Shown piece after piece: positions 7,878-48,807 of a stretch of DNA of 64,000 bases. Positions within the stretch are counted from its first letter, which is position 1. The number at the start of each line of letters is the position of its first letter. The translations under genes and the position numbers were made by a program. Source of the DNA: a virus; the IMG/VR virus record IMGVR_UViG_3300045988_154248; one strand, written 5' to 3'. The notes under the pieces are model-generated. The model made no database searches, had not been told where the DNA came from, and saw only the letters and a program-made list of their open reading frames with translations.

Positions 7878-10718
7878 ATGCCAAAACAACATACAATTAA
7901 CCTCGAAGCTGTTATAAAAGCTGCACTGGATAAAAATAGCGAAAAAATAATCGATGATTTTGAGAAGAAAATCACTGAACCAAAAGAGATTAATATCAAA
8001 ACAGATAAAGCATCTAAACAGGTTAAGAAGCTGTCTGATGAGATTGAAAAAGAACAAAAGAAACATACTCAAACGTCTAGAAAAAGAAATAAAACTAAAA
8101 CAGCTACTGAACAAAGTACTCCAAAAAACGCAGATAAGTATGTACAATCAACAATATATGATAAAAAAGGACGTCCATCTACTTCTCATTCGTATACGTA
8201 TGCTGATGGAAAACAACAATCTTATAACAAGAATGGTAAGTTAACATCTGAGAAGCAGACCGTTGTTGATCTTCAAAAAGCATATTCTCAGTTAAATAAA
8301 GACGTAACAGAATATTATTCATTAAAGACAAAAGAAGCAAAAGGCAAAGTAGCCACAGAGGATAAACAGTATGTTAAAGGTCGGATTTCTGATTTAGTTA
8401 ATGAAATGTCTGCAAACCGAAAATATATTGCAGATGTAAAAAAGCAAGGTTTTTACAATGATGAATTGGAGCAAAAAGCTTTTAATCATTTTCGTAGAAA
8501 AGCTAATGGCTACAACACGTATGTCGATGAGAAAAATGCTACAATCAAAGCTTATGGAAATGATGACAATACTGCTATTCGTCAGGGACAGCGTTCGAAA
8601 CAACTAAGTAATTATGCTGGACAATCCACAGATGCAATTGAAAGAGCAAGAACGCTTGATACAACTATAACAGGTTTGGAAAAAGAATTATCAAACCTTG
8701 TTTCTTCTGGCGCATCAATGGATCAAATTAAGTCAAAATTTGATGAATGCACTTCTGCTGGTAAAGAATTTAAAAATGTCATGACCCTAGTCAATAGCAC
8801 TATGGAGAAAACATCTAAAAAAGATACCGTTGTTGGAGATTCAAATGCCGCAAAGCTTCAAAATGCCATTGATAAAAAAGTAGCTCAAGCAAAAACACTT
8901 GTATCAGATAGTTCTATAAAACAATTTGACGCAAAAATTGAAAAGATTAAATCTCAGTACGCTGGACAAGATGGTTCTGCAGACGTTTTATCATCTTTAG
9001 AAAAAACAGTGAATACCATACATGACAAACAGGCTAGTATAAAAGCAGAATTAGCAAAAGGATCTTCTGGAAATTTAACACAAATTGCTTCGGATGCTGA
9101 TATTTTGAATGCAAAGCTTAATGAAGTTGAAACTACCGCGAAAACGCTTGGAACTTCACTTTCAAAAAATCTAGATGGTACCACACTTCAGAGAACTATT
9201 GATAAAATTGATAATCTTGTAAAAAATTCCGACGGTTTTGCAAGCAAATCGCAATTAGAAAAATTAAAAACTCTACGAGATTCTTATACTAATAGTGATT
9301 CTGGAATTACAAAAGCTGTCAACTATGATAATTCTAAAATTATTTCTGGCATCGAGCAGGAAATTAATGCTCGTAAAAAATTAGCAGAAGCTCAGAAAGA
9401 ATTGCAAACTGGTACATATTCTGCGAATGAAGCCAATTATAAAAATGCTCTTTCCAAATATGAAGGGCAAACTTCTGAATCTCTAACTCGTGCAAGAGAA
9501 AGTTTAAAACAATTCAAAGAGATCCGTGAAGACTTTGAAAAGTCTATGAAAGACATTAAGGTTTCTGATCTTAGTGACGAAGAGTTTGAACGTTTAAGTA
9601 AGAATCTTCAGAATATGACTGAAGAGGAAGAAAAATATAAGACAGCGATGAAACAGGTCAAGGCAGAGGAAACTGCTACTCTAGCACCTGGTGTCGCCCT
9701 TCGTGCGTCAAACGAGATGCAGTCTTATATTAACAACAACAGCAAGGCATGGAAGAAATATAAGGCACAACTCGAAGAAGTTCGTGATGCCTATAAAAAT
9801 GTAACAACAGAAGGACAAAAGTTAGAAGTTGACGCTAAAGCTAGGGATTTGAAAGCAAAAATTTCTGCTGATGGATTAACAGGTGCAAGTTTTTGGCAAG
9901 ATACAAAACGTGCTGTTAATCAAATTGCTCAATTCACTGGAATTTACGGCATGTTGCAGAATGTCGTTATGGAAATTCCATCAAAGGTTGTTTCTAATGT
10001 AAAGGAAATTAATGATGCTCAAATTGAATTAGCAAAAGTTGCAAGTGATGCATCGGAGAGTCAATTAAGTCAGTACTGGGATAAGGCTGCTGAAAGTGCC
10101 AAGAAATATGGTGCTACAGTTAGTGATGTAATTAGCAGTACTGCGGATTGGAAACGTCTCGGAGCTTCTCTTGATGACGCAAAAGAATTGTCTGACATGA
10201 CTACTCTTCTGCAACGTGTCGGAGATAACATGACCCAGGAAACATCCTCTTCTGGTCTAATTAGTGCATTGAAAGGTTTTCAACTAAAAGCAGATCAAGC
10301 ACAACATATCGTAGATGTGGCAAATGAGGTAGCCAATACGCAGCCTATTGATACAGCAGGTATTTTTGAAGCAATTGAAAGATCTGCATCATCTCTAAAA
10401 GCCGCTGGCAATACGTATGAACAGGGTGTTGCGCTTGCCAGTGCAGCGAATAGTGTAATTCAAAATCCGGAAAAAATCGGGACAGCACTAAAAACGATCT
10501 CAATGCGCATAAGAAGCGCCGAAACAGATCTTGAAGAAGCCGGTCTTGACACTGAAGGAATGGTAACTTCTACTGCCAAGCTTCGAAAAGAAATGCTTGC
10601 ACTTAGTGGCGTAGATATTCTGAAAGACAAAGATACTTTTAAGTCTACTTATCAAATTCTTGATGAGTTAGCAAATAAATGGTCTGATTTAACAGACATC
10701 CAGCAGGCAGACTACACT
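7878..10718 (+). CDS. tail tape-measure protein, coding segment 1 of 4
   Basis: AAAGGTGGTGA SD then ATG. Coiled-coil N-terminus, then a TP901-type TMP core (ADWKRLGASLDDAKELSDMTTLLQRVGDN...GTALKTISMRIRS...WSDLTDIQQA). The frame runs into a stop 27 nt after the conserved sequence ends. The 3' boundary is approximate. Confidence 0.75.
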
Positions 10719-23075: not shown

Positions 23076-23174
23076 GTTACGAAGCCATAAAATCGTATTA
23101 ATAGATGTTACGAAGCATGTAAAAAATCGTATTAATAGATGTTACGAAGCATGTAAAAAATCGTATTAATAGCG
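23076..23174 (+). ncRNA. ToxI/antiQ-like antitoxin RNA: three tandem 31/34/34-nt repeats
   Basis: GTTACGAAGC(C/ATG)...AAAATCGTATTAATAGAT repeated head-to-tail at 23076-23106, 23107-23140 and 23141-23174, immediately upstream of the ToxN-like gene. Confidence 0.7.
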
Positions 23175-23197
23175 GAGCTGGTTACAGCTCCTTTATT
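23174..23197 (+). terminator. terminator between the antitoxin repeats and the toxin gene
   Basis: GGAGCTG-GTTA-CAGCTCC hairpin then TTTATT. This is the position of the attenuating terminator in toxIN/abiQ loci. Confidence 0.6.
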
Positions 23198-23213
23198 ACT
23201 ATTAGGAGAAAAT

Positions 23214-23774
23214 ATGAAGTGGATTAATGTAGACGAAAAGTATACAGATTATCTTAGAAGTCACGAAGGAAGAATTCCTATGACCAATTATGGCACAGAT
23301 AAATACAAGCCATTTTTCGGTGTGCTGTTTGAAACAAATGGTTTGTATTATATTACACAGGTATCACATCCACGGGAAAAACATAAACGCTTGACACAAC
23401 AAAAAGATTTTTACAAAATATTTGATCCAGATAATACAACAAGATTAATAGCGGTTGTTAATCTTAATTACATGTTCCCAATTCCAAAAGAATGTACAAG
23501 TGCATTTGTTAAAAAGAATATAGGAACATATCGTACATTTAAATCAGAGAAAGCAAAAAGTCAATATATTAATTTGCTTGATAAAGAATTAAAAGTAATC
23601 AATAAAATGGATTTAGGAACAAAAGCATTGCAGTTGTATCATTTAAAATATACAGATCCTAACAGTACCGTTTCAAAAAGATGTATTGATTTTAAGGATA
23701 TGGAAAAATGGGCAAAGTTATATATTGAAACGTTAAATAATACAGAAACTACAGAACAACCCAAGGAGCAGTAA
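23214..23774 (+). CDS. toxN: ToxN/AbiQ-family type III toxin (endoribonuclease)
   Basis: MKWINVDEKYTDYLRSHEGRIP...KPFFGVLFETNGLYYITQVSHPREKH...IAVVNLNYMFPIP aligns with ToxN as I recall it: MKFYTISSKYIEYLKEFDDKVP...KAFIGIVLEIQGHKYLAPLTSPKKWH...LGLINLKFMIPI. AGGAGAA SD. Confidence 0.8.
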   Translation: MKWINVDEKYTDYLRSHEGRIPMTNYGTDKYKPFFGVLFETNGLYYITQVSHPREKHKRLTQQKDFYKIFDPDNTTRLIAVVNLNYMFPIPKECTSAFVKKNIGTYRTFKSEKAKSQYINLLDKELKVINKMDLGTKALQLYHLKYTDPNSTVSKRCIDFKDMEKWAKLYIETLNNTETTEQPKEQ

Positions 23775-32397: not shown

Positions 32398-32430
32398 TTA
32401 CTCCTCATTGATTTGAGGAGTAACTTTTAT
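32398..32430 (+). terminator. rho-independent terminator after Tal
   Basis: Perfect 10-bp stem TTACTCCTCA / TGAGGAGTAA with a 6-nt loop, then CTTTTAT. Confidence 0.65.
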
Positions 32431-32447
32431 AAGGAGGTAATACACTT

Positions 32448-32933
32448 ATGGCAAGTGATAAAATGTTAGGTAGTTTTGATCAAAAATCTGCACCAGAAGA
32501 TAATGATCTTTTGGTAGAATACGATGCTGCTGCATCGAAAGTTAAGAATGTGAAGTTCGGAGGTGTGTGGAACTGGATAGTTAAGAAATTGACATCCGCC
32601 GTAATTAATGAGTTACAAACATCAAGTAAGAATGTAGTGGGGGCTATTAATGAATTAAATAGTAAGAAAGCGATTTGCACCACTGGTTGGGAAAACGGTA
32701 ATGCAAAATCTATTTTTGAAATATTTTCGCCAACTTCTCCAAATGGTATTTATAGTTATTATAATATTAAAGATATTCCATTTTATCATTCTCCTACAGA
32801 TGCCTATGTAACAATAATAAAAGGACATGAGTTAATTATTGCTTTTAATGAACAGAGTATTTTTATAACAGGAAGTTCAAGAAATACATGGACAAAGGAA
32901 TGGCATTCTATCAAGCTTGGTATCCTATCTTAA
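32448..32933 (+). CDS. tail fibre / receptor-binding protein: constant N-terminus (to 32666) fused to the currently expressed variable cassette V1
   Basis: AAGGAGG SD then ATG. Constant part ...VVGAINELNSK ends exactly in the crossover motif AAATAGTAAG (32657-32666). V1 (32667-32933) ends ...RNTWTKEWHSIKLGILS. Confidence 0.75.
   Translation: MASDKMLGSFDQKSAPEDNDLLVEYDAAASKVKNVKFGGVWNWIVKKLTSAVINELQTSSKNVVGAINELNSKKAICTTGWENGNAKSIFEIFSPTSPNGIYSYYNIKDIPFYHSPTDAYVTIIKGHELIIAFNEQSIFITGSSRNTWTKEWHSIKLGILS
32657..32666 (+). repeat. crossover site 1 (end of the constant region)
   Basis: gaaTTAAATAGTAAGaaa, read as L-N-S-K in the fibre frame. Confidence 0.7.
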
Positions 32934-32941
32934 ATAGTAAG
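32932..32941 (+). repeat. crossover site 2 (direct orientation, head of cassette V2)
   Basis: tatCTTAAATAGTAAGaca. It supplies the TAA stop of V1 and, in the +1 frame, N-S-K of V2. Confidence 0.7.
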
Positions 32942-33664
32942 ACATTATTACATAATGCAGGTGGTCATAACTCTATCTTCAGAGGTAAGAACTTAGGTAC
33001 ATCTTACACATCTGCGATGTCTAAGGCTATTCAGGCGGGTACATTTGATGACCTGTATGTAGGTGATTACCTTACAATCAACGGTACTGTATATCGAATC
33101 GCTGGATTCAATCTTGGAAAACAGATTGGAGGCAACGCATCTATGGGTAACTGCATGTGCCTCGTTCCTGACTCTGCTCTGTATAGCGCACAGATGCACA
33201 ATACGGATAGTGGTCAGTATACAGAAGGTTCTGCTGCAAATACAACAACCGGTGCATATGCAAATTCTGATATGAGAACCACCAACCTTGCACAGGCAAC
33301 TCAGAAGATTGTGAACGACTTCGGTTCTACTCATGTAATGTCTTACAGAGATATCCTGCCGAACGCAACCGCTAACGGACAGGCTTCTGGATGGGCTTGG
33401 TATGACTGTAAAGTTGAACTGATGTCTGAGGTTATGGTGTACGGAACAACTGTATGGGCTAATAGCGGATATGAAGTTGGATGTATCAACTCTCAGCTCC
33501 CACTGTTCGCTCTCGCTCCTGAATATATTCACCGTCGCTTCGTCTATTGGCTCCGTGGTGTTGGGAGTGCGACTTCCTTCGCTTCTGTGAGCAACGCCGG
33601 TTATGCGACCAACACCAACGCTTCTTTTTCTTATGGTGTTCGTCCGTTTTTCTTCGTTAATTAA
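32932..33664 (+). CDS. silent fibre C-terminal cassette V2 (244 aa, lectin-like)
   Basis: The in-frame N-S-K entry (LNSKTLLHNAGG...) has no SD; the Met at 32888 lies inside V1. The C-terminus ...YWLRGVGSATSFASVSNAGYATNTNASFSYGVRPFFFVN resembles the WLRS...GVRP signature of DUF6273-type domains, from memory. Confidence 0.6.
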
Positions 33665-33803
33665 GATTTTTACGTGCATAGAAACGGGAATAATAGCTAT
33701 TGACTGCGGATTTAATTGGTTTATATTTTTCAAGTATTTGATGAGAGAATATGGGAATGTGGTAATAGAAATTGCCAAAATTTCCCAAGGAGGTAGGTTA
33801 ATA

Positions 33804-34802
33804 TTGACAAAATTAGAAAATATTCTCGAGCAAATACTTGAAAAATTACAGGATAGCTTAACGCATGAACAGCTTTCGGAATTAGAAAGCACTATGGTTA
33901 TTGCATTCCACGGAATCGAGGTACAAGAAGAACACACTCAGTTAGTAACATCAGAGCGTACATGGGAGAAGATTCTTCGGATGTATTGTGCCGCAAAGCG
34001 TGTTGAAAATTGCTCCGAAAGAACTATTAAAGGTTACAGTCGATGCATTATTCAGTTTTTCACGCAGATCAACAAGAAAATAAATAACATAACTACGAAT
34101 GATATTAGATATTATTTGGCATTTTTTCAAGAAACGCATCATACTTCTATTGTATATCTTGATAACATACGTAGGTATCTTAATTCATTTTTTACATGGG
34201 CTGCGGATGAAGGATATATACAATCAAATCCTATGCGAAAACTCAAGAAAATGAGAGTACCTACTAAACTTAAAAAAACATTTTCAGCAGCAGAGATGGA
34301 AGAACTTCGTTGCAGTGCAAACTCTCAGAGAGATATTGCAATTATGGAATTTTTATATTGTACTGCTACTCGTATTGGAGAGGCAGTTAGCGTTAATCGC
34401 TCGGATATTGATTGGCAAAGAAAAGAATTAATTGTTTATGGAGAAAAGGGCAAGAAAGAACGTACTGTTTATTTGACAGATCGCTGCATTTATCATCTTA
34501 AAAAATATCTTGATGAAAGAAAAGATACAAATGAAGCTTTATTTGTATCCTCAAAATCTCCACATAAGCGACTTGGAGTTCAGGCAATTCAGTCTATGTT
34601 GGCAGCGTTAGGTAAAAAGACAAATATTCACGTACATGCTCATAAATTTCGAAGGACGTTACTTACGGATGCAGGAAAACGTGGTATGCCATTACAAGAG
34701 ATTCAGGTCTATGCAGGACACGCCAAGCCAGATACAACGATGCAATATGTAATGGTTCAACAAGAACGTGTTAAATCGAATTTTATGAAAAATATTGCAT
34801 AA
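33804..34802 (+). CDS. tyrosine recombinase (XerC/D-Rci-like), candidate shufflon invertase
   Basis: CAAGGAGGT SD then TTG 33804. Core-binding domain (ERTIKGYSRCIIQFF...YLNSFFTWAADEGYIQSNP). Catalytic residues: ATRIGE (Arg), HKFRRT (HxxR), GHAKPDTTMQY (His...Tyr). Confidence 0.8.
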   Translation: MTKLENILEQILEKLQDSLTHEQLSELESTMVIAFHGIEVQEEHTQLVTSERTWEKILRMYCAAKRVENCSERTIKGYSRCIIQFFTQINKKINNITTNDIRYYLAFFQETHHTSIVYLDNIRRYLNSFFTWAADEGYIQSNPMRKLKKMRVPTKLKKTFSAAEMEELRCSANSQRDIAIMEFLYCTATRIGEAVSVNRSDIDWQRKELIVYGEKGKKERTVYLTDRCIYHLKKYLDERKDTNEALFVSSKSPHKRLGVQAIQSMLAALGKKTNIHVHAHKFRRTLLTDAGKRGMPLQEIQVYAGHAKPDTTMQYVMVQQERVKSNFMKNIA

Positions 34803-34956
34803 TTTTTATAAATAGTCTAATAAAAATACCCTTATTTTTTGATCGCCCATTGGACGGTCTATTTATCGTGTATGTATATATTGATATTTTGCAATTTTGT
34901 AGGTTGCATGTTTTTATTCTTGTATTTATATTAAATCCGCAGTCTATAGAATTATT

Positions 34957-35266
34957 TTAACCAAATAATAATCCATTCACTTTGTAAAAGGACTCCAATT
35001 TGGAGTTTCCGTTAAAAGTAATTTTACCCAAATCTGTATTAATAGCAATACTTGACGTATCGGTATTTGACGCAGTGAAAGAAAGTAGTTTCATAGACCA
35101 TTTTGTTCCATAATTGATAACAATCGAAAAATACACACCACTTCCAATATTACCGGAAATCAATAATAAACCGATAGCGGTGTCCGATATATTATATTTG
35201 ATCGTTGCTGTTTTGTCATTTATTGTCGTATTAACGTCTATTGGTTTGATTCTTGTCTTACTATTT
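34957..35266 (-). CDS. silent fibre C-terminal cassette A
   Basis: Minus-strand reading from the site: AAT AGT AAG ACA AGA... gives NSKTRIKPIDVNTTINDKTATIKYNISDTAIGLLLISGNIGSG...NGLLFG*, open in the N-S-K frame. No SD or start. Confidence 0.6.
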
Positions 35267-35524
35267 TATTGAGCTGTAAAATATTTCCATTCAGTCCAAC
35301 TGTCAGTATTTCTTTTTCTTCTGATGGCAATCTTATCATGTCCAAAAGAAAATGCTAATTGAGCGGTGTAATTACCGGTACCTAAATTCTGTTGGATAAC
35401 AAAACATGCGTTTGACCCAAGTCCACTTGGTAATCCTATTGGATTAATTTTTGTATCTAATATGGGGCATTTCGGCGGATTGTTTAGATCAGTGATATTG
35501 TTCACATATATTGCCTTACTATTT
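35266..35524 (-). CDS. silent fibre C-terminal cassette B
   Basis: NSKAIYVNNITDLNNPPKCPILD...NTDSWTEWKYFTAQ*, in frame with the site. The stop abuts site A. Confidence 0.6.
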
Positions 35525-35834
35525 AATTAACACTGCAGCAGAAAATCTATATAAAGTATTTTGTGTCGAACTTCCAATTGTTATTTGACCATCCAGCTCA
35601 ATTGAACCAAACATACAATACGGATCAGTTGGCATACTTCCTACTTGAAATATGATCTGTGTTACATTGATGGCATTAATATCATTTATCTTAGCTAAAA
35701 CATACTGGATGCCTGTATTTTGTGCAGTCACATAACCTTCTACTATTAATACTTTTCCGTATGAAACAGCAGATATATGCCCTTGGTTTGATCCATACAA
35801 AATGTCATAACTTTTAATTTCCGTTTTACTATTT
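35519..35834 (-). CDS. silent fibre C-terminal cassette C
   Basis: NSKTEIKSYDILYGSNQGHISAV...AAVLIK*. The stop is the TAG of the AAA-TAG-TAA reading of site B. Confidence 0.6.
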
Positions 35835-36104
35835 TATCTATACGTATATACATAACAACAGAATGTAAAGTTAATGCTAGTATTCATAATGAGTTTATTG
35901 CCATTCAACGTTACAGAATTTATCCTTGAATTTTCTTTTATTGAATAAATATGTCCAGCCGATGCATCATAAAATGTTGAAAATAAATATAAAGCACATC
36001 CATCATATGGATGAGAAAAAGATAGTAATCCACATGAAAGAGGAACTAATTCTATTTCTTTCACTCCGTTTTCGAAAGTCGTTCCGATAACAGTTTTACT
36101 ATTT
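35834..36104 (-). CDS. silent fibre C-terminal cassette D
   Basis: NSKTVIGTTFENGVKEIELVPLSCG...CYVYTYR*, in frame with the site. Confidence 0.6.
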
Positions 36105-36422
36105 TATTCTTCTTTCACGATTGCATTTTTTATGTTTTCATAATAGATAATGATAACAGCATTTGCATACTGTGGAAAATTTGAAAACTTTACATTTTGT
36201 ATAGAATCATTATCGTTACACTTTATTGTGACATCACCTGTTTTTAATGTATTATTTATTTTCCCAATAGTACCTGTTAAAAATGTTGAACCTCCGAATA
36301 ACGCGAATGGAGCATATGATATGTCGTTATTTCCTTCTTTATTTATAGAAATAGTTACCGACTTTATATTGGCTCCAGAAGTTCTATATATCAATAAATT
36401 ATTAAAGACTTGATTACTATTT
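36104..36422 (-). CDS. silent fibre C-terminal cassette E
   Basis: NSNQVFNNLLIYRTSGANIKSVT...NAIVKEE*. The site variant is AAATAGTAAT. Confidence 0.6.
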
Positions 36423-36679
36423 AATGCCAATTGCCCCACGTACCATCACTAAAATCATATATTCTTATGCTAACATTCCATACAATAGAATATCTCACGG
36501 CATATTGTATTTTAATTCCGTCTTGCATAGATCCAATGCAAAATATAAAATACATATTAGCGTCTGGTTTGTTTAAAGCAGAAGAAAATGCAATAGCAGA
36601 TTCTCCGATAGGTAAATCATTACAATCTTTATATTTTCCTTCGCCATAAATTTGTTGTAAACACAATCTCTTACTATTT
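36421..36679 (-). CDS. silent fibre C-terminal cassette F
   Basis: NSKRLCLQQIYGEGKYKDCNDLP...YDFSDGTWGNWH*, in frame with the site. Confidence 0.6.
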
Positions 36680-36975
36680 AACTTATAGTCACAAGATCAA
36701 GGCAGATTAAAAATGCTGCGCTCCATGGACCAAGTGTCACTTTTAATGTTGCCAAAGAAGCATCAAGTACGGGTGGTGCTGCAGATCCAGTTCCTTTTGA
36801 TATTTCTGCCACTCCCGATATCCTTCCTGTTATGTATGCAGAGGTATTGCGGTTGTTATCAATTAGTAAAAACGAAGTCATATGACTGTTTACACCACCC
36901 CACTTTACGCTTACTGTTTTGGCAGAGTCATTACTATATATAATATAACTATTGGCATTGAACCGCTTACTATTT
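36678..36975 (-). CDS. silent fibre C-terminal cassette G
   Basis: NSKRFNANSYIIYSNDSAKTVSVKWGGVNSHMTSFLLIDNN...LVTIS*, checked codon by codon with no stop. Confidence 0.6.
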
Positions 36976-37006
36976 AATTAAAGTGAACGAAAATCTGGAA
37001 AATTCA

Positions 37007-37282
37007 TTATATTTTCTTCCAAGTACACCAATTGTTTATGTCTGTAATCATGGATCGATAGAAAATATTCTCATGGTTTCCAGGTAGGATAATTTGTGTT
37101 ACTCTACCAATAGATTCTGCAAAAATGAAAACAAAACAATTAGTACAATGTTGTTCTGTTGGCTCGTTCTTTACTCGTAGATTACCTGATAAATAATATA
37201 CGTTCGAAGATGTTAAATTGTTAATCAATATCATGCAACGCAATTGCATTTTTCAAAATCTTTTGAAAACATCTTACTATTT
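37007..37282 (-). pseudogene. fibre C-terminal cassette H, frameshifted relative to its crossover site
   Basis: The N-S-K frame reads NSKMFSKDFEKCNCVA* and stops. The 80-codon ORF (MQLRCMILINN...NNWCTWKKI*) is in another frame, and one extra A in the A5 run (plus-strand T-run 37249-37253) would join them. Confidence 0.55.
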
Positions 37283-37286
37283 TTAT

Positions 37287-37590
37287 TTATTGCATTGCAA
37301 AAAAGAATATCTTTGTTATTGTTTCATCATTAGTAATATGAGATGTAAAGTTCCACCCATTTCCATCGAGTGAAAAAATAATACCGGATATCTTAATTGA
37401 TGATTGATCATAAACAATTTTTTGCACTATAGCAGAATAGCCTTTAAGGTGATTTTTCCAACTTCCGCAGATGTTAAAGATCCCGTTGTTTTGCCATCTT
37501 GTCTTAGATATAATCAAATTAATAAGTGATTCAATATCATTGCTTTCCTGTTGTGGAATATTTTTTGTTTTTGCTTGGAGATTACTATTT
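37287..37590 (-). CDS. silent fibre C-terminal cassette I
   Basis: NSNLQAKTKNIPQQESNDIESL...ITKIFFFAMQ*, in frame with the site (variant AAATAGTAAT). Confidence 0.6.
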
Positions 37591-37741
37591 AACATCATAT
37601 ATGCCAATTTTTTGCGTTTCTTTATTAAATATAACCTGTATATTTCCTGCCTTTTCGGTATAAAAAACAAAACCAAATTGATTATCATTCCAAGACTGTA
37701 TAATGATTTTTTTTATATTAAAGAATGCCGTCTTACTATTT
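37585..37741 (-). CDS. silent fibre C-terminal cassette J (short, 51 aa)
   Basis: NSKTAFFNIKKIIIQSWNDNQFGFVFYTEKAGNIQVIFNKETQKIGIYDVK*. The stop is the TAG inside site I. Confidence 0.5.
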
Positions 37742-37859
37742 AATCCACCAGATGAAACTCTGCTTTCATCCTATTTTTGTTCCTCAATTTTCCTTGAAAA
37801 CACTGGGTTTTTTTGAAACCCGTGAAAGATAATATTGACCATTTTCAATCACTAAGGAG

Positions 37860-38771
37860 GTGATTACTATTTATACTTTAATTCAAGAATCTGTTACTGG
37901 TCTAAATGGCGAAAAAGTAACTTGTGGACATCTCAGCTGTAATGAAAAAAGCACACTACGTTTAAATGATGTTCTTCGGAATTCAGGAGATTATACATTC
38001 CAGATGAAAATCAAGGCGAAAGCTGCATCTACTGTTCAACTAAGTATTGGGACATTAACAGAAAACTTTTCAGTCACTACTTCTTTTCAACAATTTAATA
38101 GAGTATGCAAAAATATCAACACTGCTACACATAAATATATCGAAATCACATTTCCTTCAGGTGATTATTGGTTCTACAATATGCAACTTGAAATGGGAAA
38201 CCTCCCAACTGCTTGGTCTTTATGCTTAGACGATTTAAACGATGCAATTGGAGCGCAATCTACATGGATCGAACAGACTACGCAAAAAATAAGTTTGTTT
38301 GCACAAAAAAATGATGTAAACGAAGCAAAGGCTGAAATGAGGGTCGAAGCAGATGGAATGATTTCAGAAGCTTTAAAATCTTATGTTACAAGTGATGATT
38401 TTGGAGACTATAAAACAGAAACAAAAACAAGATTTGAACAAACGGATAACCAGTTCGGATTTTATGTACAAAAAGATACATATGACGGGCTGAACAGTAC
38501 AGTCAATAATTTGAAATCGAATCAGGAAAATTATTTTCAATTTGATGCAAATGGTTTAAAAATAGGAAAGAAAAATAATCCATACCAGGTTGTTATAGAT
38601 AATGAAAAATATCAGATGTTAGGAAATGGACAGCCACTTATGTACATTCAATATGGTGAGCTTAACATTCCTGATGTTATTATTACCCATCAGCTTAGAA
38701 TGTTAGGATATTCTTTTACTCTTGATTCAGCTGGAAATACGAATTGTCAGTTTGTCGGAACGGGAGGTTGA
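37860..38771 (+). CDS. tail/baseplate protein (303 aa)
   Basis: AAGGAGGTGAT SD overlaps the GTG at 37860. N-terminal beta-rich domain, then a coiled segment. Co-oriented with the downstream fibre-like gene. Confidence 0.5.
   Translation: MITIYTLIQESVTGLNGEKVTCGHLSCNEKSTLRLNDVLRNSGDYTFQMKIKAKAASTVQLSIGTLTENFSVTTSFQQFNRVCKNINTATHKYIEITFPSGDYWFYNMQLEMGNLPTAWSLCLDDLNDAIGAQSTWIEQTTQKISLFAQKNDVNEAKAEMRVEADGMISEALKSYVTSDDFGDYKTETKTRFEQTDNQFGFYVQKDTYDGLNSTVNNLKSNQENYFQFDANGLKIGKKNNPYQVVIDNEKYQMLGNGQPLMYIQYGELNIPDVIITHQLRMLGYSFTLDSAGNTNCQFVGTGG
37863..37872 (-). repeat. outermost crossover-like site K, overlapping the translation start region of the next gene
   Basis: ggtgATTACTATTTAtac is identical over 11 nt to sites E and I. 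Read from the fibre frame it gives only NSNHLLSD*. Confidence 0.4.
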
Positions 38772-44354: not shown

Positions 44355-44392
44355 GGGGAATATCAATTAATTTTGGTATTCCCCATTTTTTT
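44355..44392 (+). terminator. terminator hairpin (possibly bidirectional)
   Basis: GGGGAATA ... TATTCCCC stem followed by ATTTTTTT. It abuts the tniQ stop codon. Confidence 0.55.
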
Positions 44393-45875
44393 ACGCTTTT
44401 TTATTATTTTTCTGTATTTTTAGATACGTTTCAGGATATCTGTATTGTAGTATATTCATGGCTTTTATCATATTTTTTTCTATTACGTGTACCATACCCT
44501 TTAATTCGCTATATGAAATATAATCGCTGTCAATTTGATCGACAATATATTTTATTTTATCGACCCAATAATCCTCTATTGGTTTTTCTTTTGTTTTAAT
44601 ATACTTATAGCATTGTGGCATATAATAAAAATCATTTCTTCTGATGTCTTGACAAATTTGTTGCATGAAAGCATTAAATCCTCCTACAGTTAATCTTCTA
44701 ACTTTGTCAGAATTCTTAAAATATAAGTCAATATAATATTCAATTTTAGGATAATACTTTTTATCTAATTCAGAATACCTCTTTCCTTTAGGCGGTATAT
44801 TCCTACTGCTACTATGTGCATAATTTTGGCTTATTATTTTTTGTTTTTCAACTTCATATTGACCGTTAATTATTTTACTTACATTACAAGGTAAAATATG
44901 ATATTGTTTTGCAAGCTTGTTTATGCCGTTATCTTTTGTATACTCTGATCGAATTCTTTCGACTAATTCCGAATCAATTTGTTTCGCCGTTTTGCATACA
45001 AAAATATCAGATATTTGTATATCTAAAAATAATAATATATGAATTGTTCTAAGTGGATTCGCTTTATTTGAAAATATATCTTGCATTTTCTTAATCTGAG
45101 AATTCTTTTCTATACTATTCTCTAACAAGTATTGTTCAAAATCATTAATAAATGCTGACTTATGTTGTAGCCACGAAAGTTGATTTATATACCGTTTTTG
45201 AATTAATTTTTTATAGAATACATCAAACATCGTAATACCGTTTTTAAGACTCTGTTTTCTTACTACTAATTGATATAGGTATTTTGCGGTATTTATTTCA
45301 CCGATGGTTCCCATATTATACGAATAATCATCATCAATACAATTTTCAGCTGCATGAAAATTAATTATTCTTGAATTATTAACATTAATTGACGAATCTT
45401 TAAGTTTACATCCGTGAATTACACAAACATTAATTTCTGGAATTTGATGAAAAGCATTCCAATATGTTTCGTGATATTGCTCTCTATTTTCTTTTGCACA
45501 TAATGGACAATATTTTAGAAATATTTTTTGATGTTTATGTTTTGGTCTTAATGGAAGATATTCTGTAAAACTCTTGTCATTTGATATGAACTTTCTCAAC
45601 GCATCTTCTTTGTTTGATTTGTTTAAAAATAAAGACCAATAGAAAAACATAGTGTGATTATAATATAAATCATTAACTATATAATTTTTCGACATAAAGG
45701 AATACAATGTGTCACTCGGTTCATTCACATAAAATATTTCGATGTATTCATGCGGTTGTTTAAACACGATTTCTTTAAAAGATTGATTATTCTGTACATT
45801 TATATCTTGTTTCAATCTTGAATACACGCTATAGAATAATTCATGTTCATATATTTTTGGAAAGTAATTTATCAT
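44391..45875 (-). CDS. tniQ: TniQ/TnsD-family target selector
   Basis: N-terminal FPKIYEHELFYSVYSRL (TniQ signature). Zn motif CPLCAKEN...CVIHGC. C-terminal HTH-like GINKLAKQYHILPCNVSKII. Start overlaps the tnsC stop. Confidence 0.75.
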   Translation of the reverse strand: MINYFPKIYEHELFYSVYSRLKQDINVQNNQSFKEIVFKQPHEYIEIFYVNEPSDTLYSFMSKNYIVNDLYYNHTMFFYWSLFLNKSNKEDALRKFISNDKSFTEYLPLRPKHKHQKIFLKYCPLCAKENREQYHETYWNAFHQIPEINVCVIHGCKLKDSSINVNNSRIINFHAAENCIDDDYSYNMGTIGEINTAKYLYQLVVRKQSLKNGITMFDVFYKKLIQKRYINQLSWLQHKSAFINDFEQYLLENSIEKNSQIKKMQDIFSNKANPLRTIHILLFLDIQISDIFVCKTAKQIDSELVERIRSEYTKDNGINKLAKQYHILPCNVSKIINGQYEVEKQKIISQNYAHSSSRNIPPKGKRYSELDKKYYPKIEYYIDLYFKNSDKVRRLTVGGFNAFMQQICQDIRRNDFYYMPQCYKYIKTKEKPIEDYWVDKIKYIVDQIDSDYISYSELKGMVHVIEKNMIKAMNILQYRYPETYLKIQKNNKKA

Positions 45876-47077
45876 AATTCTACCTCTTCTACAGTAAAAG
45901 TATTTTTAATAAGAGTTAAAAGATTACAATTATTAGACTGCGAATGATCATACAAATTCGCAATACTAATTCCGTCTGGATGTTTAATTATTATATTTTC
46001 AACGGGTTTCTTCATGGACGATTTAATCTTTTTTTGTATTCTTTCTGGATGCATGGACGCCGTTTCATTATATGATGCATTGAAAATATTAATGTTTAAT
46101 TCTTCTGTGCCACTCATAATAGCTAGTTCTTGAGCCTTGTAGAATAGCGATACAACCGTTGACGTTACTCCATTAGAATGTGAATATAACCAATTTATAA
46201 GCTTCTCAGATGGTTCTGTATACTGCTGTACATATTGAAAATGCAACAACTTATTACAGAAATGTATAAAAGCATCATCGTAATCCGTTTGTAGATATCG
46301 CAATCCAATTGTCCTTCTCTCTAAATGAGGAGCGCTTTCGAACCAATGCAAACATTCCGGTGTTCCCACCATACAGATACTAATTCCGCTGCTATTGATG
46401 ATTTGTGTCAACGATCCAATAAGCTTTTCGCCATTTTTATTGTTGACAACATTCTGAATTTCGTCAACAATTAATACGCCAACATGATTTAAACATATTT
46501 GACTAACAAAACCAATCAGTCTATCTATTGTATATCGTTGTGCTATTTGCAAATAATCTCCGTCTAGTGTAGCATCAAGAATACGAACAATTTCTAATAA
46601 CAGACTTTTTACAGATGAGTCAAATGGGCATTGTACGAGTATAAATGGAGCAATTCTTTGGTACGGATCAGTTGTTTCAATAAATTTGTTTCCAGAAATC
46701 AATGATATTGCTCTGGTAATAGCACTACTCTTCCCTATGCCAGAAACTCCAATGATTGTAAACGAATCAGCACCACCTATAATACCATTATACGTTTGTA
46801 TGGTGTTTGTTGTATTTTCGATTCTTTGCTGTTTTACCATCATATCATTTTCTTTTTTCTTAATCGACCTGAGTAATGCCATATACAATTTATTATATAC
46901 ATCAACAGATAATTGTGATGGAATATAAATATCATATAATTCTGATAACGCCAGAAGACGAGTTGGCATTGTTTCATTGGCAATGTTTATATTATAGTTT
47001 GGTAATATCTGCAATTGATTTATCAGCTTATCGCCACATAAAAAATCAGGCAATTGTGAAAGTAATTTACCGTTCAT
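45872..47077 (-). CDS. tnsC: TnsC/TniB-like AAA+ ATPase
   Basis: Walker A GVSGIGKSS, Walker B VLIVDEIQ. ATGA overlap with the tnsB stop. Confidence 0.8.
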   Translation of the reverse strand: MNGKLLSQLPDFLCGDKLINQLQILPNYNINIANETMPTRLLALSELYDIYIPSQLSVDVYNKLYMALLRSIKKKENDMMVKQQRIENTTNTIQTYNGIIGGADSFTIIGVSGIGKSSAITRAISLISGNKFIETTDPYQRIAPFILVQCPFDSSVKSLLLEIVRILDATLDGDYLQIAQRYTIDRLIGFVSQICLNHVGVLIVDEIQNVVNNKNGEKLIGSLTQIINSSGISICMVGTPECLHWFESAPHLERRTIGLRYLQTDYDDAFIHFCNKLLHFQYVQQYTEPSEKLINWLYSHSNGVTSTVVSLFYKAQELAIMSGTEELNINIFNASYNETASMHPERIQKKIKSSMKKPVENIIIKHPDGISIANLYDHSQSNNCNLLTLIKNTFTVEEVEL

Positions 47078-48807
47078 CTTTTAACTCCTCCCCTAGCAAT
47101 CAATTCAATCTCATTCATCAGATCAATCTTCGCCTGTCGTGCATTGATTTGTTCAGAACGTAGTGTTGTTTTGCTCTGTTCTTTGATCTGTTCCACTTCA
47201 TCCAATTTTCTATTCTTATATCTGCTTTCAACCAATTCAAAAGGAATAAACTCGCCCTTCTCTACTGTCCATACTACAGATACATCATCTGGATCGTAAG
47301 CAACCTTAACATCTCCACCTTGCAGGAATCTTTCGGCGCAATCATCCCGTTTATACCGCATCCCATTTACCACTAGACCACGCCTAGTGAATGTCCCAAT
47401 GGTACGTGGGAGCAGATATAGGATTATTTTCGCGGTGTCATGCGGGAATGGAATTAAATTTGCGCCTGGTTGCTGTCTTCCCCATTCCCATATACTGGCT
47501 GCATATGGCTTTACTCCGTCTTCGATCATGGATTGTGTGTAAGGGAATCTTTCTATGAGCCGTTGGCTGTTGTAGTAGATAATACAACGCAGGATGATCT
47601 TTTCGAAATCAAACATTGTCAAACAGGCATCCAATCTGTAATCTCTTGCACCTCGTTCTTGGAAGTCTGGATCAATCACGCCTTTACCCTTAAGAAGAGG
47701 TTTATACATGGATTGAATGATGTCAAAGAATTTCTCTACTGCTCCTTTTAACTCTGGCCTGTAAGGTGGAAGATTTACCATAGTCACACCTGTTTCTGTA
47801 ATCTGTGCAAAGGATTCTGAAGTATACTCGCGTCCCATATCTGTTACAAAGATAGCTGGCAACTCTTGCACGTTCCACTGGGATTTTTCTAGTGAGATGC
47901 CGAACTTTCTACACCATTCTGTTTTGTCTGTAAGGATATTTTGGAGCAGATGACATAAACTCTTTGTATCGTTATTCCATGAGAGAACATAGCCATAACA
48001 CATACTGCTGTAAGCATCAATACAAGTAGTTAGGATCGGGCGACCTTTTAAGGTTCCTGTCTCGTCTATGAGGTAGATGTCACATACAGTTGAATCGAAC
48101 ATACCCGTCCCTATGTTGGTTGCAAACTCACGGATACCATCTCCTAGCAAGGGACGATTGTTCCGCTGATAATTTGACAGTCCATCTCTGGAAATATAAT
48201 AAGTTTGGAGCTTCTTGGTTTTCCGGTAAAAGTATCGAAACTGATAAAAGGATGGATGATCGGATAGTAACTGTCCCATGCTGTCACAATACTTTTCTTT
48301 CAGCATCATCTCATATGCTGTAACAAGACTGTTTTGTCTGCGTGTATAGAAGAACTTATTCAATGCCCATCTCATGTTTTTCTCATCTTTAGTCAGTACC
48401 TTTTCTTTCGTATGAACTTTTGGTGCAAGTACAGTGACGGTCTGAAAGATTAGATACTGATACAGATAGCGGCGGATGGTCTGCTTACTAATGTTATGCT
48501 CCTCTGAGATGGAAGAGATGATGTTTGCAGTTGCTGTACTGTCTCCTAAGTGGTACAGGATTGGTGCAATCAGAGTGTATCTCTCATGCGCAATGCGCAT
48601 TTGATCAGATGTAAGCTCCTGTTCGGCTGGTGGAGTGATGTTAAGCGCGTCATATAAATGCTTCTCTGGCAATGGGGTATATTGCGTTCTGAGCGTCCAG
48701 AATGGCATTTTCGGATGGAGACAGTCAATTACAAGGGTCTGGTTATCTGATGTCTTTAAAATTCTGTAGAACGTGTTATTGATATAGGCTATTTCAGCTT
48801 TCTGCAT
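47074..48807 (-). CDS. tnsB: TnsB-like DDE (Mu/rve-type) transposase
   Basis: HTH N-terminus. Catalytic core CDIYLIDE...IFVTDMGREY...PYRPELKGAVEKFF. Confidence 0.85.
   Translation of the reverse strand: MQKAEIAYINNTFYRILKTSDNQTLVIDCLHPKMPFWTLRTQYTPLPEKHLYDALNITPPAEQELTSDQMRIAHERYTLIAPILYHLGDSTATANIISSISEEHNISKQTIRRYLYQYLIFQTVTVLAPKVHTKEKVLTKDEKNMRWALNKFFYTRRQNSLVTAYEMMLKEKYCDSMGQLLSDHPSFYQFRYFYRKTKKLQTYYISRDGLSNYQRNNRPLLGDGIREFATNIGTGMFDSTVCDIYLIDETGTLKGRPILTTCIDAYSSMCYGYVLSWNNDTKSLCHLLQNILTDKTEWCRKFGISLEKSQWNVQELPAIFVTDMGREYTSESFAQITETGVTMVNLPPYRPELKGAVEKFFDIIQSMYKPLLKGKGVIDPDFQERGARDYRLDACLTMFDFEKIILRCIIYYNSQRLIERFPYTQSMIEDGVKPYAASIWEWGRQQPGANLIPFPHDTAKIILYLLPRTIGTFTRRGLVVNGMRYKRDDCAERFLQGGDVKVAYDPDDVSVVWTVEKGEFIPFELVESRYKNRKLDEVEQIKEQSKTTLRSEQINARQAKIDLMNEIELIARGGVKR

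Follow-up and report, generated by a model that had tools for sequence, protein, structure and literature searches.

The Rin shufflon was described in the Bifidobacterium prophages Bb423phi1, Bl157phi1 and Bl30698phi1 (Mavrich et al. 2018, PMC6109161) and later reported in Eggerthella lenta prophages (PMC8778435). It combines a phage-encoded, XerD-like tyrosine invertase that lacks an arm-binding domain with a receptor-binding protein that has a constant N-terminus and alternative tips of about 95-100 aa, and its short asymmetric crossover repeat of 11 bp occurs as two direct sites followed by inverted sites. Isomers have been seen between prophages and in virion DNA (PMC6109161). The same arrangement of armless tyrosine recombinase, constant N-terminus, alternative tips and short asymmetric repeats is present at positions 32,448 to 37,872 of a 64,000-nucleotide stretch (the window) from the IMG/VR virus record IMGVR_UViG_3300045988_154248. 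We regard this locus, which belongs to the tail module of an uncultivated phage of the human gut, as very probably an active shufflon, or multiple-inversion system. Rin has 5 cassettes, the site TTCCCTAACCC, a recombinase at the edge of the array and hosts among the Actinobacteria, whereas the locus in the window has 11 usable cassettes and a dead one, the core TWAAATAGTAAD and a recombinase at the pivot of the array, in an invertible segment of its own with a second class of sites.

The pilV shufflon of R64 with its recombinase Rci is likewise a tyrosine-recombinase multiple-inversion system with a constant 5' part, alternative 3' ends, asymmetric sites and inversion as the only outcome. It comprises 4 segments and 7 sites, the segments being flanked by inverted sites with convergent ends, and rci lies outside the shufflon; the sfx site is 31 bp long, of which 7 bp form the core and 12 bp a conserved right arm, and Rci has an extra C-terminal domain (PMC11852207). 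In contrast, the array in the window pivots on its recombinase, about 12-14 bp of the site are conserved, the recombinase has no such C-terminal domain, and the variable product is a phage tail protein rather than a pilus adhesin. Judged by site structure and the absent C-terminal domain, the locus is not a member of the Rci/sfx group; the comparison with both Rin and Rci is one of system descriptions, not of recombinase sequences.

Host-range variation by inversions that swap the C-termini of tail fibres is also known from Mu Gin, P1 Cin and p15B Min, of which Min is a multiple-inversion system (PMC6109161). These are serine recombinases with few alternatives (two for Gin and Cin), whereas the only recombinase in our locus is of the tyrosine type. 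Min has six crossover sites. A tail-fibre shufflon of a BV01-like Phocaeicola phage, all configurations of which were detected in reads, was reported in a 2026 preprint (PMC13596623). It too belongs to a gut phage (a temperate one) and has directional motifs (10 bp, TGGGAGAACT) separating 3' tail-gene cassettes, but it has three cassettes, six isoforms, a Bacteroidota host and a flanking recombinase at the edge. A systematic survey likewise includes programmed inversions that affect the tail fibres of prophages. A reading of the window made from its letters alone (the sequence-only reading) had taken a double-digit cassette array driven by a tyrosine recombinase on a phage fibre to be an undescribed system. 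With Rin, a phage receptor-binding shufflon with a tyrosine recombinase has already been described, so that this part of the claim falls; the double-digit size stands. In the literature searched we found no description of an array of this size, of the pivot topology or of a second site class around the recombinase gene, and these three features look new.

The working of the locus may be pictured as follows. A single expression site fuses a 70-aa constant part in frame, at N-S-K, to one of 11 usable cassettes. With the sites left of the recombinase gene pointing one way and those on its right the other, the Xer-like tyrosine recombinase encoded in the locus would exchange strands within AAATAGTAA of one left and one right site. 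The intervening DNA would then invert, a new tip would land behind the constant part and the silent cassettes would be re-dealt. The central segment would flip each time, and a separate pair of sites around the recombinase gene (x and x') would recombine only with itself, turning the gene back.

Crossover sites, cassettes and recombinase

Allowing at most one mismatch, 14 copies of AAATAGTAAG lie in 32657-37872 (2 on the + strand and 12 on the - strand), and the rest of the window holds only 5 matches, all of them weaker. A sharper pattern, TWAAATAGTAAD, has 11 matches, all within about 5.1 kb (32655-37743), where 0.24 would be expected in the whole window and at most 2 were found in any of 100 shuffled sequences. 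The + strand has two of these matches, at 32655 and 32930, and the - strand has the other nine, which run from 35257 to 37732. After alignment the working site is 12 bp long, T-W-AAATAGTAA-D, in which AAATAGTAA stands for 9 invariant bases; its information content is confined to positions -3 to +12, and there is no conserved 12-bp arm. The sequence-only reading had counted 13 copies of the core. The repeats are real and there are 11 working sites, but the copies at 36910, 37273 and 37863 do not work: the first (36910-36919, within cassette I) has a mismatch in the core, and the other two have A for T at position -2.

As had been noted, the core forms codons N71-S72-K73 of a 161-aa open reading frame (ORF; 32448-32933), and open cassettes follow the sites. 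Eleven cassettes are open in the N-S-K frame, nine of them for 85-105 codons, B for 243 and L for 51 (51-243 aa in all), whereas in shuffled sequence 0.03% of frames stay open for at least 85 codons. Together with the two preceding bases the core holds stop codons in all three frames (T-A-A over -2 to +1 or -1 to +2, and TAG at 4-6), so that the cassettes can abut without spacers, and each cassette terminates at the following site. Cassette J, open for 16 codons before a frameshift, is the sole frameshifted one. The tips are mutually unrelated in sequence. The W-x-x-W ending pointed out earlier was found again in A, D, H and J. The features of the array are the following.

32448-32657, + strand: constant N-terminal part, aa 1-70, ending ...GAINEL; the same 70 aa are fused to many tips
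32655-32666, + strand: main site 1, TTAAATAGTAAG, the expression site within the tail-protein gene
32658-32933, + strand: cassette A, 91 aa, the currently expressed tip, ending WTKEWHSIKLGILS
32930-32941, + strand: main site 2, in direct orientation; provides the TAA stop of cassette A
32933-33664, + strand: cassette B, 243 aa, anchored to the recombinase segment
33804-34802, + strand: tyrosine recombinase, 332 aa, TTG start, Shine-Dalgarno sequence GGAGG at 33790-33794
34957-35268, - strand: cassette C, 102 aa, site 35257-35268, anchored to the recombinase segment; found behind the constant part in P0056 and other proteins
35266-35526, - strand: cassette D, 85 aa, ending WTEWKYFTAQ, site 35515-35526 (P0087)
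35519-35836, - strand: cassette E, 104 aa, site 35825-35836 (P0066-P0091)
35834-36106, - strand: cassette F, 89 aa, site 36095-36106 (P0018)
36104-36424, - strand: cassette G, 105 aa, site 36413-36424 (P0114 is the constant part plus G, 100% identity)
36421-36681, - strand: cassette H, 85 aa, ending GTWGNWH, site 36670-36681 (P0034)
36678-36977, - strand: cassette I, 98 aa, site 36966-36977; holds the non-functional look-alike 36910-36919
36978-37282, - strand: cassette J, a pseudogene with the degenerate site AAAAATAGTAAG; travels with K
37287-37592, - strand: cassette K, 100 aa, site 37581-37592 (P0039)
37585-37743, - strand: cassette L, 51 aa, site 37732-37743, the right-hand end of the shufflon (P0081)
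37744-37872, no strand: fixed right flank, with a terminator-like hairpin on the - strand (37821-37805)

The constant part is preceded by a Shine-Dalgarno sequence (AAGGAGG, 32431-32437) and, further upstream, by a terminator-like hairpin (32398-32423). At the other end comes the next tail gene (37860-38771), whose GTG start is overlapped by the look-alike at 37863-37872. A second expression site at the right edge was considered and ruled out: the - strand lacks an ORF upstream of it, and the right flank is invariant.

The recombinase gene lies between the two blocks of site orientation and its product has the catalytic residues R189, H280-x-x-R283, H306 and Y315. In both respects the sequence-only reading was right, with the correction that the gene starts at TTG 33804 and not at the ATG of the long ORF. 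Pfam finds Phage_integrase (1e-30) and Phage_int_SAM_4, and the protein consists of a SAM-like core-binding domain and a catalytic domain only, with neither an arm-binding domain nor a C-terminal extension (17 residues follow the catalytic Tyr315). With matches to NCBIfam XerA (8e-59, below the cutoff) and to PDB entry 4a8e (8e-23), it is by sequence similarity Xer-like, nearest to XerA/XerC-type proteins. The exact sequence occurs in 148 contigs and 310 indexed blocks of the collection, and a search of genome contigs with it gave only distant matches in Verrucomicrobia. The sequence-only reading had allowed that the enzyme might prove to be the phage integrase acting on an unrelated att site. 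A role in integration and excision was rejected: the protein has no arm-binding domain, its gene lies in the tail module and the recombining sites are within the locus.

Xer-like proteins annotated as integrase, 29-30% identical to the recombinase, are also encoded between the last tail gene and the holin gene in two phages of cultured Clostridia, phiCp-D of Clostridium perfringens (L133, 21639-22616) and TPELB_ph1 of Terrisporobacter (L134, 17645-18640). TPELB_ph1 has a separate integrase elsewhere in its genome. Inverted repeats around the tail-module recombinases of the cultured Clostridia phages were looked for and nothing convincing was found.

Natural isomers and the position of strand exchange

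The sequence-only reading had predicted that inversion between site 1 and any inverted site would fuse a new tip to the constant part, and both natural isomers and public fusion proteins with the silent cassettes bear this out. Contigs were obtained from ENA, Logan, IMG/VR and NCBI by way of sequences encoding fusion proteins or bearing the recombinase, and the inter-site segments of the window were mapped onto them. A search with the protein of the 161-aa ORF gave 333 matches, of which 120 were listed; the constant 70 aa are present at 99-100% identity in 108 of the listed proteins, and for 61 of the 108 a cassette of the window is matched as well. At L-N-S-K/N the constant part passes into silent cassettes of the window, namely C, E, F, G and L at 97-100% identity, or into diverged alleles of D, H and K (79-81%), and its fusion to B forms a gene of 313 aa in L120. 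Conversely, cassette A is silent behind other flanks in other contigs (P0006-P0012), and reciprocal junctions are found in which the flank upstream of site K is joined to cassette A (P0009, P0011).

The 42 complete loci represent 37 arrangements. Their segments are 99-100% identical with breakpoints at the cores, and the permuted segments differ in order and orientation and are spaced by exactly the 10-bp core. In all 322 cassette placements (322/322) the cassettes to the left of the recombinase code rightwards and those to its right code leftwards, which is what repeated inversions between a left and a right site must give. Cassette loss is seen over evolutionary time. The left flank of site 1, that is the constant part, is joined to 17 different cassette starts, and across related genomes 33 cassette starts have at least 3 partners, some of these starts being alleles of one cassette.

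Polymorphisms next to the core locate the crossover. The base at -1 (T/A) stays with the left flank in all of the 30 flanks with at least 3 partners (30/30), and that at +10 (G/A/T) goes with the right flank in 29 of 33, which places strand exchange inside the 9 invariant bases AAATAGTAA. The overlap region of tyrosine recombinases is typically 6-8 bp, and the mapped crossover fits this. The two look-alikes with A at -2 behave differently from the working sites: the one of cassette J at 37273 (AAAAATAGTAAG) has a constant partner, always the end of K, in 26/26 related cases, and the flank of the one at 37863 is constant in 45/45, whereas a cassette start related to J that stands behind a proper site has at least 6 partners. 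Sites with A at -2 never recombine.

A natural control is provided by five loci from different samples, among them one in the NCBI assembly GCA_008680665.1, in which the recombinase is truncated to about residues 215-332 and lacks R189. These five share one common arrangement, while the 37 loci with an intact recombinase show 36. This lineage is a decayed, locked shufflon. It is widespread (L088, L109-L112); the last approximately 118 residues of the recombinase are encoded directly behind a 166-aa fusion gene (e.g. 10559-10915 in L109), and the order D-F-E-G is identical in 5/5 contigs.

It might be thought that the differing orders are artefacts which assemblers produce from short repeats. 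The isomers do all come from metagenome assemblies, and many contigs stop in or near the locus. However, the shared 12-bp core is shorter than the k-mers that assemblers use, so that it cannot cause mis-joins, and the contigs originate from several pipelines and sources. All 322 placements fit the topology expected of inversions, the flanking polymorphisms segregate cleanly at the core, and the lineage with the truncated recombinase, which has the same repeats, is always assembled in one order. We therefore consider this explanation hardly credible.

Ordinary homologous recombination or modular exchange over evolutionary time could also rearrange cassettes, with the recombinase being an integrase or a Xer-type enzyme with another job. 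Cassette content does vary by lineage, a second constant region beginning MAKFTDY... shares the A and B tips, and the recombinase resembles Xer proteins; the shared tips and the varying content imply that lateral exchange also occurs. As the source of the observed orders it is nevertheless very improbable. An identity of 9 bp is far below what RecA-type recombination needs, only inversions are found and a cassette in the wrong orientation was never seen. Moreover, the arrangements differ among genomes that are otherwise 99-100% identical, and it is precisely the loci with a truncated recombinase that keep a fixed order. As to another job for the enzyme, it lacks an arm-binding domain, its gene stands among the tail genes, and the genome has a Mu-like transposase with TniB and TniQ at a different place.

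A second site class around the recombinase gene

Because every productive inversion between a left and a right site spans the pivot, the recombinase gene flips with each of them. This had been overlooked in the sequence-only reading; a separate pair of sites deals with the flip. These sites, of the class ATTAAATCCGCA (2 matches against 0.18 expected), flank the recombinase gene.

33702-33716, + strand: second-class site x, GACTGCGGATTTAAT; its core across the population is TGCGGATTTAAT (33705-33716)
34930-34944, - strand: second-class site x', ATTAAATCCGCAGTC when read on the + strand; inverted partner of x

Written in the same sense, the main site reads TTAAAT-AGTAA-G and x reads TTAAAT-CCGCA-G. 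The first six bases are common and positions 5-9 differ, a difference that should prevent cross-reaction between the two classes. The window and L001 have the order B-x-recombinase-x'-C, and L002-L004 have C'-x-recombinase-x'-B'; the mismatch beside the site remains on the outer DNA. Five pairs of outer flanks are each seen in both configurations around an unchanged recombinase, the exchange lying inside the 12-bp core. The 1.2-kb segment 33717-34929 therefore inverts by itself, as a unit.

Sister lineages whose recombinase is 56-59% identical have ordinary main-type sites at both positions flanking the gene, so the x/x' pair resembles a main site that was copied and has diverged. Two loci of the sister lineage, L072 and L067, are 100% identical and differ by in-place inversion of all three segments, including the recombinase segment. 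These sister loci (L025, 7424-9715; L058, 7025-9097; L067; L072) are small R64-style versions with the layout site, two convergent tips, site, recombinase, site, two convergent tips, site, and their cores are AAATAGTAAG or AAATAGTGATA (N-S-D).

The recombinase gene is co-directional with the tail operon in 41 of the 42 loci. The sole anti-oriented locus, L113 (with 4 similar contigs), has an intact recombinase gene and an insertion sequence (IS) in the segment. This IS (8251-9492, Transposase_mut family, 413 aa) lies between the recombinase gene and x', and it is the transposase gene rather than the recombinase gene that is co-directional with the operon.

The orientation of the gene might not be maintained by any mechanism, its uniformity being due to sampling or to purifying selection and the x pair being incidental or belonging to another enzyme. 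Several observations can be read in this way: the recombinase gene of the anti-oriented L113 is intact, no mechanism can be read from the sequence, and state 1 and the complete flip appear locally identical, which would leave no local asymmetry of the sites to set a direction. On the other hand, 41 of 42 co-oriented loci are far from what equal odds would give, the five flank pairs occur in both configurations with exchange inside the 12-bp core, and the x pair occupies positions which in the relatives hold main-type sites and where inversion of the recombinase segment is seen directly. On balance we find an unmaintained orientation rather unlikely, though less so than the two alternatives weighed above. 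Since state 1 and the complete flip are locally identical, the preference should not lie in the sites themselves, and it must come, we infer, from a wider context, such as the direction of transcription or selection on phage function.

Whether a single recombinase serves two naturally heterospecific site classes, with the derived x pair having no other use than to re-turn the enzyme's own gene after each shuffle and so to keep it co-directional with the late operon, seems to us an evenly balanced question. The engineered pairs loxP/lox2272 and FRT/F3 offer an analogy: such site classes have a common protein-binding part and a differing overlap, and each recombines only with its own kind. The lox and FRT pairs were engineered, whereas x/x' and the main sites would be a natural example within one locus. 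If this is correct, the locus contains a self-righting recombinase gene nested in a shufflon, and with it a ready-made orthogonal site pair for a single enzyme.

A promoter-like sequence, TTGACT-16-TATATT (33700-33727), overlaps site x. The first two bases of its -35 element come from the outer flank, giving TTGACT beside B and TAGACT beside C, and expression of the recombinase might thus depend on the abutting cassette. A second candidate, TTGCAT-17-TATATT, reading out of the recombinase segment, was dropped: its -35 element matches at 3/6 positions and it is absent from the promoter-scan list.

The variable tail protein and its phage

The locus lies inside a tail module of siphovirus type. 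Upstream are genes for a Big_2 protein and for two tail proteins, one with DUF6558 and one of 1938 aa. Downstream the module encodes a tail protein of 303 aa and a DUF859/Gp10_C protein of 614 aa, together with a holin-like protein and a glucosaminidase-amidase endolysin. This endolysin, of Gram-positive type, has its nearest named relative in a metagenome-assembled genome (MAG) of Clostridium sp. In a matching Caudoviricetes MAG annotated by a third party, the genes of the locus are labelled 'hypothetical'. A megablast search with the locus against 50,697 deposited phage genomes gave no match, and Rfam found no RNA family in the window.

The layout, with a short conserved N-terminus and a tip of 85-105 aa set among distal tail genes, would suit a receptor-binding protein, as would the unrelatedness of the tips and the existence of a second constant region that has A and B tips in common with the first. 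Alleles of the tips differ by 211 non-synonymous and 35 synonymous distinct variants, a rough count since the alleles are not independent; by codon position the variants number 93/96/57, the third position being depleted, and there are almost no stops. This non-synonymous excess and third-position depletion point to diversifying selection on a surface in contact with the host. Tail context, layout and non-synonymous excess together suggest that the protein binds a receptor.

The shufflon could also be real and its product be another distal tail or accessory protein, for example one that evades a host defence which senses it. No homology of the product to known receptor-binding domains was detectable, the structure models were unusable, and the gene is flanked by other large tail proteins (the 1938-aa and 303-aa proteins and the 614-aa protein with Gp10_C). 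However, it stands among the distal tail genes, its size and layout match those of the Rin receptor-binding protein (Rc/Rv) and of TP901-1-type proteins (PMC6109161), the tips are unrelated to each other, and the non-synonymous excess is as expected for a host-contact surface. We hold such a different role to be improbable, with a receptor-binding role preferred.

Cassette B has a weak Pfam match to DUF6273 (E 0.017) and 4018 homologues, mostly of 310-313 aa. The second constant region, MAKFTDY..., has the same GAINELNSK junction and carries A and B tips, and by way of the shared site cassettes seem to move between phage lineages. Its N-terminus, MAKFTDYTEK... (P0002-P0005 and P0182 onwards), is about 45% identical to the first constant part, as judged by eye in an alignment, and the B-type form of 310 aa with this N-terminus is found in great abundance, in clusters that have about 2,800 members. 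A diversity-generating retroelement was rejected as the source of the variation: the spectrum is dominated by transitions rather than changes at A, and the diversity consists of the exchange of whole cassettes, although a reverse transcriptase was not searched for across the window.

Several points weigh against reading the locus as an active shufflon with a receptor-binding product. The isomers are assemblies that all come from different samples, and the five frozen loci could be one recent clone, which makes this control supportive, not decisive. The conserved site, at about 12-14 bp, is short for two recombinase monomers, and the avoidance of deletion between direct repeats is a further difficulty. 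That one enzyme acts on both site classes is suggested by the shared TTAAAT and by the homologous positions in relatives. As to the product, among the 50,697 deposited phage genomes tblastn matched the tail protein to three unannotated faecal contigs only and to no annotated relative. Pfam, PHROGs and NCBIfam gave nothing for the tail protein or its tips except the weak DUF6273 match of B, a PDB sequence search with tip B found nothing, and AlphaFold2 models were poor (pLDDT 52 for the constant part with A, from an alignment of 23 sequences, and 48 with B, from 25).

Some neighbouring features deserve mention. The tail module also contains a ToxIN-like type III toxin-antitoxin locus (23076-23774), with a ToxN ORF (23214-23774; Pfam ToxN_toxin, 5.8e-43) directly preceded by a 34-nt tandem repeat (2.5-2.9 copies, 23076-23172) that has no Rfam match. 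Right after the endolysin gene, consecutive genes on the - strand (44391-48807) encode TniQ, TniB/AAA_22 and a protein with rve and Mu-transposase-C domains. This row is conserved in the related contigs L005 and L109-L111 and may be a Tn7/Mu-like transposition module, either used by the phage or inserted in it. Between 50 and 60 kb the window encodes NrdD, a NAD-dependent ligase, dUTPase, NT5C and a weakly ThyX-like protein. Contigs with the exact recombinase sequence (L113-L122, L127, L131), from more than 10 independent samples, cluster at 200-212 kb, and the contig of the third-party-annotated record measures 206,292 bp, which makes the element probably the genome, about 206 kb long, of a jumbo phage.

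The locus offers natural contrasts between working and dead sites (position -2), between two site classes (positions 5-9) and between intact and truncated recombinases. They make the recognition of a short asymmetric site, the inversion-only outcome and the site specificity of armless tyrosine invertases testable. In synthetic biology faster, orthogonal pairs of shufflon invertases and sites are sought (PMC11852207); the present system re-deals 11 modules naturally, and two classes of sites that are orthogonal to each other may be part of it. It is the nested and apparently heterospecific switch surrounding the recombinase gene that would most repay experimental work.

The phage is common in the human gut. 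If the tips are receptor-binding domains, about a dozen specificities would be available from one phage genome, and the choice of the phage would be fed by the population at large, whose pool numbers at least 33 cassette starts with alleles of a single cassette among them. This bears on host range, on the dynamics of phages and their hosts in the gut, and on how microdiversity of tail genes in metagenomes is to be read.

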